Positions 926 to 5,160 of a stretch of 64,000 nucleotides of DNA are shown one piece after another. The notes beneath the pieces were generated by a model. That model did not search any database. It saw only the letters and a program-made list of their open reading frames with translations, and was not told the DNA's origin. Every line of letters starts with the position of its first letter. Positions within the stretch are counted from its first letter, which is position 1. Source of the stretch: Escherichia coli (GTDB taxonomy: Bacteria > Pseudomonadota > Gammaproteobacteria > Enterobacterales > Enterobacteriaceae); NCBI RefSeq assembly GCF_050920415.1, contig NZ_CP169309.1; one strand, 5' to 3'. The position numbers and the translations under genes are program-made.

Positions 926-2821
926 ATGTCTGCAACAAAACTGACCCGCCGCGAACAACGCGCCCAGGCCCAACATTTTATCGACACCCTGGAAGGCACC
1001 GCCTTTCCGAACTCAAAACGCATTTACATCACTGGCACACAACCCGGCGTGCGCGTGCCGATGCGTGAGATCCAGCTTAGCCCGACGCTAATCGGCGGTA
1101 GCAAAGAACAGCCGCAGTACGAAGAAAACGAAGCGATTCCGGTCTACGACACCTCCGGTCCGTATGGCGATCCACAGATCGCCATTAACGTGCAGCAAGG
1201 ACTGGCAAAACTGCGCCAGCCGTGGATCGATGCGCGCGGCGATACCGAAGAACTTACCGTGCGCAGTTCCGATTACACTAAAGCGCGACTAGCAGATGAT
1301 GGCCTCGACGAGCTACGTTTTAGCGGCGTATTAACCCCAAAGCGCGCCAAAGCAGGACGCCGCGTCACCCAACTGCACTACGCCCGCCGGGGCATCATCA
1401 CGCCCGAAATGGAATTCATCGCCATTCGCGAGAATATGGGTCGCGAGCGCATACGTAGCGAAGTTTTGCGCCACCAGCATCCGGGAATGAGCTTTGGCGC
1501 ACGTCTGCCGGAAAATATCACTGCGGAATTTGTCCGTGATGAAGTTGCTGCCGGACGTGCGATTATCCCGGCCAACATTAATCATCCGGAATCGGAGCCA
1601 ATGATTATTGGCCGTAACTTCCTGGTAAAAGTTAACGCCAATATCGGCAACTCGGCGGTCACCTCTTCCATCGAAGAAGAAGTGGAAAAGCTGGTATGGT
1701 CTACGCGCTGGGGGGCGGATACAGTGATGGATCTTTCCACCGGTCGCTATATTCACGAAACTCGCGAATGGATTTTGCGTAACAGCCCGGTACCGATTGG
1801 TACAGTGCCGATCTACCAGGCGCTGGAGAAGGTTAATGGGATCGCTGAAGATCTTACCTGGGAAGCGTTCCGCGACACGCTGCTGGAACAAGCCGAGCAA
1901 GGTGTGGATTACTTCACTATCCATGCGGGCGTACTGCTGCGCTATGTGCCGATGACCGCGAAACGCCTGACTGGTATCGTCTCTCGCGGCGGTTCGATTA
2001 TGGCGAAATGGTGCCTCTCCCATCATCAGGAAAATTTCCTCTATCAACACTTCCGCGAAATTTGTGAAATCTGTGCCGCTTATGACGTTTCGTTGTCGCT
2101 GGGCGACGGCCTGCGCCCTGGTTCTATACAGGACGCCAACGATGAAGCGCAGTTTGCCGAGCTACATACGCTGGGCGAACTGACCAAAATCGCCTGGGAA
2201 TATGACGTGCAGGTGATGATTGAAGGTCCAGGCCACGTGCCGATGCAGATGATCCGCCGCAATATGACCGAGGAGTTAGAGCACTGCCACGAAGCACCGT
2301 TCTATACCCTCGGGCCGCTAACTACTGATATTGCGCCGGGTTATGACCACTTCACATCGGGGATTGGCGCGGCGATGATTGGCTGGTTTGGCTGCGCGAT
2401 GCTCTGTTACGTAACGCCAAAAGAGCATCTGGGTCTGCCTAATAAAGAAGATGTTAAGCAGGGGCTTATCACCTATAAGATTGCCGCCCACGCCGCCGAC
2501 CTGGCGAAAGGGCATCCGGGCGCGCAAATTCGCGATAACGCCATGTCGAAAGCCCGCTTCGAATTTCGCTGGGAAGACCAGTTTAATCTGGCCCTCGACC
2601 CGTTTACCGCCCGCGCTTATCACGATGAAACCCTGCCACAAGAGTCCGGTAAAGTCGCCCATTTTTGCTCCATGTGTGGGCCGAAATTCTGCTCGATGAA
2701 AATCAGCCAGGAAGTGCGTGACTATGCCGCCGCGCAAACCATTGAAGTGGGAATGGCGGATATGTCGGAGAACTTCCGTGCCAGTGGTGGAGAAATCTAC
2801 CTGCGTAAGGAGGAAGCGTGA
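926..2821 (+). CDS. thiC: Phosphomethylpyrimidine synthase ThiC, 631 aa
   Basis: ORF track; radical-SAM ThiC with C-terminal [11 protein letters not shown] cluster motif. Confidence 0.95.
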
Positions 2822-3456
2822 TGTATCAGCCTGATTTTCCTCACGTACCTTTTCGTTTAGGACTGTACCCGGTAGTGGACAGCGTACAGTGGATCGAACG
2901 TCTGTTGGATGCAGGCGTGCGTACTCTCCAGCTGCGCATCAAAGATCGGCGCGATGAAGAGGTGGAAGCCGATGTCGTAGCAGCAATTGCGCTGGGCCGC
3001 CGCTATAACGCACGGCTGTTTATCAACGATTACTGGCAGCTGGCGATTAAGCATCAGGCGTATGGCGTCCATTTGGGGCAGGAAGATTTGCAATCTACCG
3101 ATCTCAATGCCATCCGCGCGGCAGGCCTGCGGCTGGGCGTTTCGACACATGATGATATGGAGATCGACGTCGCGTTGGCAGCACGTCCTTCTTATATCGC
3201 GCTAGGACATGTGTTCCCGACGCAAACCAAACAGATGCCTTCTGCACCGCAGGGGCTGGAACAGCTGGCACGGCATGTTGAGCGCCTGGCGGATTATCCC
3301 ACCGTGGCGATTGGCGGTATCAGTCTGCCGCGCGCGCCTGCGGTGATAGCAACGGGTGTCGGCAGTATCGCCGTTGTCAGCGCCATTACTCAAGCCGCAG
3401 ACTGGCGTTTGGCAACAGCACAGTTGCTGGAAATTGCAGGAGTTGGCGATGAATGA
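2821..3456 (+). CDS. thiE: Thiamine-phosphate synthase ThiE, 211 aa
   Basis: ORF track 2818..3456; start moved to ATG 2821, which overlaps the thiC stop (TGATG) and gives the canonical MYQPDFP N-terminus. Confidence 0.9.
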
Positions 3457-4204
3457 CCGTGACTTTATGCGTTATAGCCGCCAAATCCTGCTCGACGATA
3501 TCGCTCTTGACGGGCAGCAAAAACTGCTCGACAGCCAGGTGCTGATTATCGGTCTGGGTGGGTTGGGTACACCTGCTGCGCTATACCTGGCGGGAGCTGG
3601 TGTCGGGACGCTGGTACTGGCAGATGACGACGATGTGCATTTGAGCAATCTGCAACGACAAATCCTCTTTACGACTGAAGATATCGATCGCCCGAAATCG
3701 CAGGTCAGCCAACAGCGACTGACACAGTTGAATCCCGACATTCAACTGACAGCATTACAACAACGGTTAACGGGTAAGGCGTTAAAAGATGCGGTAGCAC
3801 GGGCCGATGTGGTACTCGACTGTACCGACAACATGGCGACTCGCCAGGAGATTAATACCGCCTGCGTAGCACTTAACACACCGCTTATCATCGCCAGCGC
3901 GGTCGGATTTGGTGGTCAGTTGATGGTGCTGACACCGCCCTGGGAACAGGGGTGTTACCGCTGCCTGTGGCCGGATAACCAGGAGCCAGAACGCAACTGC
4001 CGCACGGCGGGCGTGGTTGGCCCGGTGGTCGGGGTCATGGGCACGTTACAGGCACTGGAAGCAATTAAGCTATTGAGTGGTATAGAGACCCCTGCGGGAT
4101 ATCTTCGACTGTTTGACGGTAAATTAAACCAATGGCGCAACCTGGCGTTGCGCCGTGCCAGCAGTTGCCCAGTATGCGGAGGAAGCAATGCAGATCCTGT
4201 TTAA
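3449..4204 (+). CDS. thiF: ThiS adenylyltransferase ThiF, 251 aa
   Basis: ORF track 3356..4204 is N-terminally extended; known ThiF begins [12 protein letters not shown] at ATG 3449, overlapping the thiE stop. Confidence 0.9.
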
Positions 4205-4388
4205 CGATCAACCGATGCAGTGCGTCGCCGGACTAACTGTTCACGAACTGCTGGAGCAACTCGATCAACAACAAGCAGGTGCGGCACTGGCAATTAATCA
4301 GCAAATCGTCCCGCGGGAGCAATGGGCGCAACATATCGTGCAGGATGGCGACCAGATCCTGCTTTTTCAGGTTATTGCAGGGGGTTGA
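4188..4388 (+). CDS. thiS: Sulfur carrier protein ThiS, 66 aa, C-terminal GG
   Basis: ORF track 4155..4388; start set to MQILFND; ubiquitin-like fold ending in GG. Confidence 0.88.
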
Positions 4389-4389
4389 G

Positions 4390-5160
4390 ATGTTACGTAT
4401 TGCGGGCAAAACGTTTGATTCACATCTGTTTACCGGCACCGGGAAATTCGCCTCTTCACAATTGATGGTGGAGGCGATCCGCGCTTCCGGCAGCCAACTG
4501 GTGACGCTGGCGATGAAACGTGTCGACTTGCGCCAACACAACGATGCTATCCTCGATCCACTTATCGCGGCGGGTGTGACACTACTGCCAAATACTTCTG
4601 GGGCGAAAACTGCGGAAGAAGCCATTTTCGCCGCTCATCTGGCACGTGAAGCGTTAGGCACAAACTGGCTAAAATTAGAGATTCACCCTGACGCCCGCTG
4701 GCTGTTGCCCGATCCCATCGAAACCCTGAAAGCCGCCGAAATGTTGGTGCAACAGGGATTTGTCGTGCTGCCTTACTGCGGTGCCGATCCAGTGTTGTGC
4801 AAACGTCTGGAGGAAGTGGGCTGTGCAGCAGTAATGCCGCTCGGCGCACCAATTGGCTCTAATCAGGGACTGGAAACCCGCGCCATGCTGGAGATTATTA
4901 TCCAGCAAGCCACGGTTCCGGTGGTCGTTGATGCTGGCATTGGCGTTCCCAGCCATGCCGCGCAGGCGCTTGAAATGGGAGCCGATGCGGTGTTAGTGAA
5001 TACGGCGATTGCCGTCGCGGACGATCCCGTCAACATGGCGAAGGCATTTCGTCTGGCGGTAGACGCCGGCCTGCTGGCACGTCAGTCCGGGCCGGGCAGT
5101 CGCAGTCATTTTGCTCATGCCACTAGCCCGCTGACCGGATTTCTGGAGGCATCGGCATGA
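4390..5160 (+). CDS. thiG: Thiazole synthase ThiG, 256 aa
   Basis: ORF track 4279..5160 is extended; known start [11 protein letters not shown] at 4390, one nt after the thiS stop. Confidence 0.92.

Follow-up and report, generated by a model that had tools for sequence, protein, structure and literature searches.

Gene junctions, start codons and glycine-encoded Shine-Dalgarno sequences of a divergent thiCEFSGH operon in Escherichia coli

Organisation of the operon

The window, meaning here the whole stretch of Escherichia coli DNA that was analysed (64,000 nucleotides), carries near its beginning six co-directional genes which, on reading the sequence, are preceded by one TPP riboswitch and followed by one intrinsic terminator. 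The features of this region are the following:

745-845, + strand: TPP riboswitch aptamer in the thiC leader (Rfam RF00059, scoring 74.8 bits where gathering requires 54.3), also annotated as a riboswitch in a RefSeq strain that is 100% identical
926-2821, + strand: thiC, 631 aa, the first cistron, whose start is riboswitch-controlled (NF006763, 1072.9 bits against a cut-off of 650; stop TGA 2819-2821)
2821-3456, + strand: thiE, 211 aa (NF002904, 421.1 against 231; stop TGA 3454-3456)
3449-4204, + strand: thiF, 251 aa (TIGR02356, 286.6 against 275.25; stop TAA 4202-4204)
4188-4388, + strand: thiS, 66 aa, with a C-terminal Gly-Gly (TIGR01683, 69 against 37.45; stop TGA 4386-4388)
4390-5160, + strand: thiG, 256 aa (Pfam PF05690, 373.2 against 23; stop TGA 5158-5160)
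5157-6290, + strand: thiH, 377 aa, the last cistron (TIGR02351, 528.8 bits against 380)
6337-6378, + strand: intrinsic terminator closing the operon, in which a U7 run comes after a stem of 12 pairs (RNAalifold, 17 genera or species)

All six Thi proteins exceed the cut-offs of equivalog or Pfam family models, the Pfam model being used for ThiG, for which the NCBIfam search gave none. The genes lie in the order C-E-F-S-G-H on one strand, within the rsd / yjaZ-rpoC neighbourhood. An earlier note, made from the letters of this DNA, had placed a single TPP riboswitch ahead of all the thi genes, and this is borne out by the Rfam search, in which RF00059 matched only once between positions 1 and 10000 of the window. 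A single riboswitch in the thiC leader was also found by Rfam search in six other genera or species. Within the operon, a sequence scan found terminator-like or promoter-like sites not above shuffle expectation.

The same gene order is found in the thiCEFSGH operon of K-12 MG1655 (b3994, b3993, b3992, b4407, b3991 and b3990), which also has the thiC TPP riboswitch, encodes proteins of the same lengths (631, 211, 251, 66, 256 and 377 aa) and shares its flanks with the window (rsd upstream; sroH, yjaZ and rpoC downstream). The two sequences are colinear over 21 kb, with an identity of 98-100% in the flanks and of 92-96.6% in the operon, and the Thi proteins differ from those of K-12 by 4-8 amino-acid changes each. 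Alleles at least 99% identical to that of the window occur in just 2 of 5,420 E. coli genomes. The region is thus best described as the canonical E. coli thiamine-biosynthesis operon in the form of a divergent allele, approximately 95% identical to K-12, and this description, taken jointly with the start codons, Shine-Dalgarno (SD) sequences and coupling discussed below, is held with high confidence.

Geometry of the gene junctions

Each of the five internal junctions combines the end of one gene with the SD and start codon of the next. Their coordinates, together with the predicted SD duplex energies, are as follows:

2809-2823, + strand: thiC/thiE junction, SD GGAGG at 2809-2813 inside thiC, -12.1 kcal/mol; 1-nt overlap in TGATG 2819-2823, thiE ATG 2821-2823
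3438-3456, + strand: thiE/thiF junction, SD AGGAG at 3438-3442, including the ThiE G207 codon GGA, -6.9 kcal/mol; 8-nt overlap ATGAATGA at 3449-3456, thiF ATG 3449-3451
4178-4204, + strand: thiF/thiS junction, SD GGAGGAAG at 4178-4185, corresponding to the Gly244-Gly245 codons of the ThiF C-P-V-C-G-G motif, -9.5 kcal/mol; 17-nt overlap between the thiS ATG at 4188-4190 and the thiF stop TAA
4379-4392, + strand: thiS/thiG junction, SD AGGGGG at 4379-4384, corresponding to the ThiS Gly65-Gly66 codons, -10.1 kcal/mol; 1-nt gap (G4389), thiG ATG 4390-4392
5145-5160, + strand: thiG/thiH junction, SD GGAGG at 5145-5149, -9.3 kcal/mol; 4-nt overlap in ATGA 5157-5160, thiH ATG 5157-5159

The spacings reported in the earlier note agree with the sequence to the base at all five junctions. 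Its description of them as overlapping stop and start codons holds for thiC/thiE and thiG/thiH, which share stop and start bases, but not for the other junctions, where the codons themselves do not overlap. The note had proposed a comparison with the curated K-12 annotation, and the geometry of K-12 MG1655 (-1, -8, -17, +1 and -4) turns out to be identical, with nearly identical junction sequences; it is likewise identical in the RefSeq annotation of the 100%-identical strain. The observation on the thi junctions is therefore correct and already known, as it recovers what is curated for a textbook operon, and by itself it is of very little consequence.

The junctions were also compared across 80 Enterobacterales loci, in which the identity of the Thi proteins to those of the window is 62-99%; the denominators vary, as not each junction could be scored in each locus. 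The 1-nt overlap of thiC/thiE is found in 64 of 66 loci and the 1-nt gap of thiS/thiG in 76 of 81. With regard to thiE/thiF, an overlap of 8 nt occurs in 62 of 73 loci and one of 14 nt in 9, and for thiF/thiS the overlap is 17 nt in 55 of 81 loci, 20 nt in 19 and 4 nt in 6. The thiG/thiH genes overlap by 4 nt in 53 of 76 loci and by 1 nt in 18, and are separated by 2 nt in 5. Since the geometry of the window is identical in K-12 and represents the majority state across these loci, it is more than chance. In one Citrobacter amalonaticus locus thiF and thiS lie in a single frame, which traces to a longer G-homopolymer and in all likelihood reflects an indel in the assembly rather than a genuine gene fusion.

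Start codons of the internal genes

The list of open reading frames contains N-terminally extended frames for thiF, thiS and thiG, as the earlier note had pointed out, and these can be described as follows:

3356-4204, + strand: long thiF frame starting at GTG 3356, 282 aa instead of 251 (+31 codons), an artefact
4155-4388, + strand: long thiS frame starting at GTG 4155, 77 aa instead of 66 (+11 codons), an artefact
4279-5160, + strand: long thiG frame starting at GTG 4279, 293 aa instead of 256 (+37 codons), an artefact

The true start codons are the ATGs of the annotation, at 2821, 3449, 4188, 4390 and 5157. The longer frames exist only because the gene upstream, when read in an alternative frame, happens to be open as far back as a GTG. 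That these GTGs are used, yielding N-terminally extended ThiF, ThiS and ThiG, would be suggested by their position as the earliest in-frame start codons following a stop, and is nevertheless so improbable that it can practically be set aside. The SD energies at GTG 3356, GTG 4155 and GTG 4279 are -3.0, -1.5 and -0.4 kcal/mol, respectively, which amounts to no SD. Moreover, the long starts are not conserved: the farthest upstream in-frame start varies from 0 to 247 codons across loci and is missing in 17-21 of 81, and the extension is interrupted by an in-frame stop in 40 of 80 loci for thiF and in 35 of 80 for thiG. The homologous short start, on the other hand, is kept as ATG in all 81 loci for thiG, in 80 for thiS (with GTG in the remaining one) and in 75 of 81 for thiF. 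In the thiF loci without an ATG at the homologous position the start is offset by one codon, and a loss of the start, which was considered for the non-start codons seen at homologous positions in some loci, was rejected for this reason.

The extensions also lie outside the family profiles and the solved structures. Residues 1-251 of E. coli ThiF (PDB 1zud) align to residues 32-282 of the long thiF frame, and residues 1-66 of E. coli ThiS (PDB 1f0z) align to residues 12-77 of the long thiS frame. For thiG, the Pfam model PF05690 begins at residue 41 of the long frame and residue 1 of Bacillus subtilis ThiG (PDB 1tyg) aligns to residue 38; the N-termini of ThiG homologues from other bacteria likewise align with the short start. 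The B. subtilis ThiS-ThiG complex in 1tyg and the E1-like/ubiquitin-like pairs of the MoeB/MoaD type consist of proteins homologous to ThiF, ThiS and ThiG. The short starts are those used by RefSeq and by the K-12 annotation. Computed from them, the K-12 masses are 7311.2 Da for ThiS and 26895.8 Da for ThiG, as opposed to 8.3 kDa and 36.8 kDa for the extended K-12 frames. Top-down mass spectrometry of the K-12 proteins reportedly gave 7310.74 Da for ThiS and 26896.5 Da for ThiG, values with which the computed masses of the extended forms are incompatible. For the proteins encoded in the window, the average masses calculated from the short starts with Met retained are 27154.8 Da (ThiF), 7322.3 Da (ThiS) and 26813.8 Da (ThiG), and those calculated for the long frames are 30571.8, 8483.6 and 31109.7 Da, respectively.

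A one-codon over-extension, to GTG 2818, is also seen for thiE, which the earlier note did not list. It is again an artefact: positions 1-210 of the NF002904 profile start at the thiE ATG and not at the GTG, and in 52 of 73 loci thiE has no upstream in-frame start, so that the upstream GTG is mostly absent. These frames illustrate a generic pitfall, namely that calling open reading frames from the first start after a stop over-extends genes which start inside the preceding gene.

Shine-Dalgarno sequences within upstream glycine codons

An SD of its own precedes every internal start; it falls within the final codons of the preceding gene and is conserved across loci. The duplex energies at the five annotated internal starts range from -6.9 to -12.1 kcal/mol, compared with an operon background of -2.7 +/- 2.5 kcal/mol, and the SD of thiC itself is weak (-3.3 kcal/mol).

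The glycine codons that form the SDs of thiF, thiS and thiG show a marked restriction in their third position. The ThiE G207 codon is GGA or GGG in 69 of 70 loci, the ThiS G65 codon is GGA or GGG in 80 of 80, and the ThiF G244 codon is GGA in 75 of 79, against a background of 9.6%. When 114 conserved glycine columns are ranked by their use of GGR codons, ThiF G244, ThiS G65 and ThiE G207 occupy ranks 1 to 3; this column-rank test is safer than binomial p-values on the glycine codons, which overstate independence given that the loci are phylogenetically related. Synonymous-site selection thus acts, judging from this ranking, on the SD-forming glycine codons, which is the first gain of the comparative analysis. 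It also accounts for the stability of the junction distances, as the SDs are built from upstream glycine codons that are held in this manner. In particular, the thiG SD is carried by the diglycine tail of ThiS, and the +1 spacing of thiS/thiG would thereby be fixed. A hard-wiring of the thiF, thiS and thiG SDs in codons for glycines of the preceding protein, including this functionally essential tail, is the better-supported part of a speculative reading that is taken up with the downstream RNA element.

Translational coupling between the cistrons

The earlier note had called the thi genes tightly coupled, which from the junction geometry is plausible at the -1, -4, +1 and -8 junctions and weaker at -17. 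A ribosome ending one cistron would terminate only a few bases away from the SD and ATG of the cistron that follows, and the translation of the downstream cistron would therefore probably be coupled to that of the upstream one, by termination-reinitiation, by the unfolding of local structure, or by both. A literature search found no direct test of translational coupling within thi. In other systems, coupling is supported most efficiently by spacings of -4 to +3, the -4, -1 and -8 classes are enriched, and efficiency drops steeply as the overlap lengthens from -4 to -25 nt, as observed in a systematic study (PMC12548453). Three junctions, thiC/thiE (-1), thiS/thiG (+1) and thiG/thiH (-4), have a spacing in this efficient range of about -4 to +3; thiE/thiF (-8) belongs to an enriched class yet lies outside the range, and thiF/thiS (-17) lies far outside it. 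Like the coupled overlapping pairs of the ATGA and TGATG classes (such as the E. coli pairs of Huber et al. 2019 and trpBA), the thi genes are co-directional, show the enriched spacings -4, -1 and -8 and have the SD inside the upstream gene; unlike them, thiF/thiS has a 17-nt overlap, beyond their most efficient coupling range. Since efficiency falls with longer overlaps, thiF/thiS is the weakest case, and the identification of this junction as the one with the least assured coupling is the second gain of the comparison. Coupling would probably be least efficient there, and a strong SD that is predicted to be accessible may permit independent initiation too.

It could also be argued that the overlaps are a mere consequence of genome compaction, and that the cistrons are translated independently from their own SDs and co-regulated by the shared transcript and Rho polarity. 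Strong SDs at five of five internal starts speak for this, as do the ribosome binding sites (RBSs) of thiS, thiG and thiH, whose predicted opening cost is below the operon median (17th-25th percentile); strong SDs of their own together with a low opening cost would permit these three genes independent initiation. Furthermore, the native E. coli pair bioBF is initiated de novo despite its overlap (PMC6728339), coupling falls in overlaps of more than 4 nt (PMC12548453), and the riboswitch governs, in addition to thiC initiation, Rho-dependent termination, so that it already acts at the level of transcription (Chauvier 2017, PMC5234074). However, the junction classes persist from genus to genus despite divergence of the sequence around them, and of 14 native overlapping pairs that were tested, 13 showed strict coupling (Huber et al. 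2019, PMC6728339). Judging from the footprint size, a ribosome finishing thiF must cover the SD and ATG of thiS, and the two events would thus not be independent. Compaction with independent translation is therefore regarded as rather unlikely. A different account retains coupling and ascribes it to RNA unfolding instead of reinitiation, with the upstream ribosome melting a structure that hides the next RBS, at least for thiE and thiF. Unfolding is one of the two accepted models of coupling (PMC12548453), and the predicted opening energy of the -18 to +12 region is above the operon median for both genes (16.0 kcal/mol and 69th percentile for thiE; 19.4 kcal/mol and 88th percentile for thiF). 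Nonetheless, these folds are in silico only and their percentiles are unremarkable, the prediction for thiS, thiG and thiH is an open RBS, and predicted accessibility does not separate the coupling models. A purely unfolding-based mechanism would consequently be a tentative possibility.

Under the preferred reading, in which translation of the internal cistrons is coupled with varying efficiency, the riboswitch, Rho and coupling together would extend TPP control over all six genes. The same combination would also favour balanced amounts of the partner proteins, ThiF with ThiS and ThiG with ThiH.

Terminator and downstream RNA element

In the terminator stem, 6 of the 12 pairs that RNAalifold gives across 17 genera or species show compensatory changes, and 87% of the alignment cells are paired. 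A simple terminator scan missed this feature because of its long loop.

Directly past the terminator, at about 6385-6437, lies an unannotated, covarying two-hairpin RNA element that is kept from Escherichia to Erwinia, and in which the loop of the hairpin at 6403-6435 holds an invariant CUUCCUC. This strongly conserved structured RNA is a more useful by-product of the analysis than the junctions themselves and may merit separate study. The SD of thiE (2810-2816) and that of thiS (4179-4185) share the sequence GAGGAAG, which is complementary to this loop; as the window has 8 copies of GAGGAAG where 5.8 would be expected, the complementarity is not statistically notable. The speculative reading mentioned above goes further and proposes that the CUUCCUC element might pair with internal SDs, either in trans or, on transcripts that read through the terminator, in cis, and so tune the internal cistrons independently of the riboswitch, which would make the RBSs more than passive coupling points. 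We give this pairing a very slim chance.

Two other candidates around the operon end were rejected. A weak match to STnc240 in Rfam (21 bits, E 0.75) falls on the terminator hairpin, has no counterpart at the gathering score in the Salmonella loci and was taken as chance. Similarly, the ATGTAA located 6 nt past the thiH stop looked conserved, but neither a start-stop mini-ORF nor a back-up stop accounts for it, as other loci have TGCAA at this place.

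Organisation and identity of the thi operon

The six thi genes of the window are the K-12 thiCEFSGH operon in the form of a divergent allele, with junctions as in the curated annotation. Over positions 700-6300, E. coli strain MFDS1022581 shows 100% identity, and RefSeq places its thiC, thiE, thiF, thiS, thiG and thiH at exactly the same coordinates; these positions are matched in 5,420 of the 5,426 complete E. coli genomes. The six Thi proteins all exceed the cut-offs of equivalog or Pfam models.

745-845: TPP riboswitch (Rfam, 74.8 bits against a gathering score of 54.3)
926-2821, + strand: thiC, stop codon TGA at 2819-2821
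thiC/thiE: thiE ATG at 2821; TGATG, 1-nt overlap
thiE/thiF: thiF start at 3449, thiE end at 3456; ATGAATGA, 8-nt overlap
thiF/thiS: thiS start at 4188, thiF TAA at 4202-4204; 17-nt overlap
thiS/thiG: thiS TGA at 4386-4388, thiG start at 4390; 1-nt gap
thiG/thiH: thiH start at 5157, thiG end at 5160; ATGA, 4-nt overlap

The junction figures of the earlier note are all correct when the five junctions are re-read directly from the sequence, and the comparison with curated K-12 annotation that it proposed agrees, as all five distances in MG1655 are those of the window; the junction finding was already known. Its claim of a single TPP riboswitch is likewise borne out, with one Rfam match (745-845) and no second TPP riboswitch in the first 10 kb.

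The thi operon (1000-6500) is 92-96.6% identical to that of K-12, and the flanking rsd, yjaZ, rpoC and rpoB 98-100%. The changes are mostly synonymous, ThiG being 93.8% identical in nucleotides and 98% in amino acids. Alleles at least 99% identical to that of the window are found in only 2 of the 5,420 E. coli genomes, while 2,555 carry alleles just 90-95% identical to it.

Start codons of the internal genes

A mechanical ORF list extends three of the genes upstream, and thiE by one codon to GTG 2818:

3356-4204, + strand: long ORF in the thiF frame, 282 aa
4155-4388, + strand: long ORF in the thiS frame, 77 aa
4279-5160, + strand: long ORF in the thiG frame, 293 aa

The earlier note held that the extended starts of thiF, thiS and thiG are not real, a view upheld by conservation, Shine-Dalgarno (SD) energies, domain profiles, structures and the RefSeq and K-12 annotation. 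The comparison set comprised 80 loci from other Enterobacterales species, collected with ThiG as query and with genes mapped by tblastn. At the position homologous to the annotated start, thiG has ATG in 81/81 loci; thiS has it in 80, with GTG in the remaining one; and thiF, thiE and thiH have it in 75/81, 70/73 and 65/76, respectively, the exceptions being one-codon offsets of ATG. The distance to the farthest in-frame upstream start codon ranges across loci from 0 to 247 codons, and no such codon exists in 17-21 of the 81 (thiF, thiS or thiG). Furthermore, an in-frame stop interrupts the counterpart of the window's extension in 40 of 80 loci for thiF and 35 of 80 for thiG.

Predicted duplexes with the anti-SD, against a background over the operon of -2.7 +/- 2.5 kcal/mol, are strong at the annotated starts (thiE -12.1, thiF -6.9, thiS -9.5, thiG -10.1 and thiH -9.3 kcal/mol), a property kept across the comparison loci; the long starts give -3.0 (GTG 3356), -1.5 (GTG 4155) and -0.4 kcal/mol (GTG 4279). 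Residues 1-251 of the E. coli ThiF structure 1zud correspond to long-ORF residues 32-282, residues 1-66 of the ThiS structure 1f0z to residues 12-77, and residue 1 of the B. subtilis ThiG structure 1tyg to residue 38, with the Pfam domains starting at residues 40 (ThiF), 14 (ThiS) and 41 (ThiG) of the long ORFs.

With the annotated starts and retention of Met, the computed K-12 masses are 7311.2 Da for ThiS and 26895.8 Da for ThiG, compared with 8332 and 36770 Da for the longest K-12 ORFs. Kelleher et al. (1998, Protein Sci 7:1796) reportedly obtained 7310.74 and 26896.5 Da by top-down mass spectrometry. If they did, the proteomic check suggested in the earlier note was done long ago and favours the short starts.

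Shine-Dalgarno sequences built from upstream codons

The SD of every downstream gene consists of codons of the gene before it, as detailed for thiF, thiS and thiG:

3438-3442: thiF SD, AGGAG, including ThiE Gly207
4178-4185: thiS SD, GGAGGAAG, from the Gly-Gly in the C-P-V-C-G-G motif of ThiF
4379-4384: thiG SD, AGGGGG, the Gly-Gly tail of ThiS

The codon is GGA in 75 of 79 loci at ThiF G244, and GGA or GGG (GGR) in 80/80 at ThiS G65 and 69/70 at ThiE G207, compared with 9.6% GGA and 27% GGR among Gly codons of the same genes. These are the top three of 114 conserved Gly columns for GGR use, a ranking that is safer than binomial p-values since the control carries the same phylogeny. The bias provides independent evidence that the SDs of thiF, thiS and thiG, and hence the short starts, are functional. 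Fixation of the SD in the ThiS diglycine codons also accounts for how little the +1 spacing of thiS and thiG varies, as this SD, followed by the stop and one base, would yield a 5-nt SD-to-ATG spacer.

The fourth column in the ranking is ThiH Gly371 (6267-6269), with GGA or GGG in 95% of loci; it has no start codon at SD distance.

Probable translational coupling

Junction spacing classes are kept across genera of Enterobacterales (negative, overlap; positive, gap):

thiC/E: -1 in 64/66 loci
thiE/F: -8 in 62/73; -14 in 9
thiF/S: -17 in 55/81; -20 in 19; -4 in 6
thiS/G: +1 in 76/81
thiG/H: -4 in 53/76; -1 in 18

Spacings of -4, -1 and -8 are enriched classes; in a systematic study, coupling efficiency was highest from -4 to +3 nt and dropped steeply as the overlap grew from -4 to -25 nt (PMC12548453). 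Tests on 14 native overlapping gene pairs of E. coli and Haloferax showed strict coupling in 13, usually with a contribution of the SD (PMC6728339). The thi junction geometry fits such coupled pairs; a literature search turned up no experimental study of thi junctions. Judging from sequence, translational coupling of the thi genes, whether by reinitiation or by unfolding, can reasonably be inferred, and would be strongest at thiC/E, thiS/G and thiG/H and weakest at thiF/S. Predicted ribosome-binding-site opening energies at the internal starts are ordinary overall, with thiE and thiF somewhat closed (69th and 88th percentile) and thiS, thiG and thiH rather open (17th-25th percentile). TPP control of the whole operon does not rest on coupling alone; the thiC riboswitch both represses initiation at thiC and induces Rho-dependent termination close to the start codon (PMC5234074).

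In Citrobacter amalonaticus AUH_CA_2023_1 (locus L026, 4780-4800), thiF and thiS share one reading frame because the G-homopolymer of the CGG/SD region is longer there, which is probably an indel of the long-read assembly rather than a genuine ThiF-ThiS fusion.

The 3' end of the operon

Several features lie downstream of thiH:

6337-6378: conserved intrinsic terminator, 12 pairs (6 with compensatory changes), then a U-run
about 6385-6437, + strand: unannotated two-hairpin RNA element
6503-6531: promoter-like site, TTGTAA, 17 nt, TATCAT
6538-6698, + strand (as thi): sroH sRNA (Rfam, 201 bits)
6671-6702: strong terminator at sroH, adjoining the convergent yjaZ stop

A TGYAA pentamer is conserved 6-10 nt past the thiH stop. 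As TGTAA (ATGTAA in the window, 6297-6302), it is in frame with that stop, 6 nt beyond it, in about 19 loci; a strict start-stop mini-ORF or a back-up stop is ruled out by the TGCAA that other loci have there. The thiH terminator is missed by a simple scan because its loop is long. The promoter-like site ends 7 nt before the 5' end of sroH, which is poorly conserved outside Escherichia, unlike the RNA element 100 nt upstream.

This element, directly after the thi terminator, matched no family in an Rfam search. In its first hairpin, a stem resembling GUCAGC/GCUGAC closes a loop containing GGA; hairpin B (6403-6435) combines a 10-bp stem, CAGGGCGAAA/UUUCGCCCUG, with a 13-nt loop that includes an invariant CUUCCUC. 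A covariance model finds the element in 52 of 81 sources (for instance L032, 6986-7066, and L077, 6991-7076, two comparison loci), at a constant distance from thiH and as far as Kosakonia, Cedecea, Buttiauxella and Erwinia; since the downstream genes vary between genera, it travels with thiH. Both-side changes occur in 10 of 16 pairs and 96.8% of cells are paired, in an alignment fitted to the model; the + strand is favoured by G-U pairs and by fold z-scores. Present as a single copy, the element keeps at least 99% identity in 4,948 E. coli genomes, whereas the adjoining thi coding DNA reaches only 90-98%. Its promoter might be formed by a TTG conserved within the terminator loop and a TAT past the U-run, spaced 16-17 nt apart. 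In a published study of transcriptome stability, thiH is listed among the mRNAs whose stability and abundance are lower in a csrA51 mutant (PMC4844966), beside which the loop GGA of the first hairpin (6385-6402) offers a lead only.
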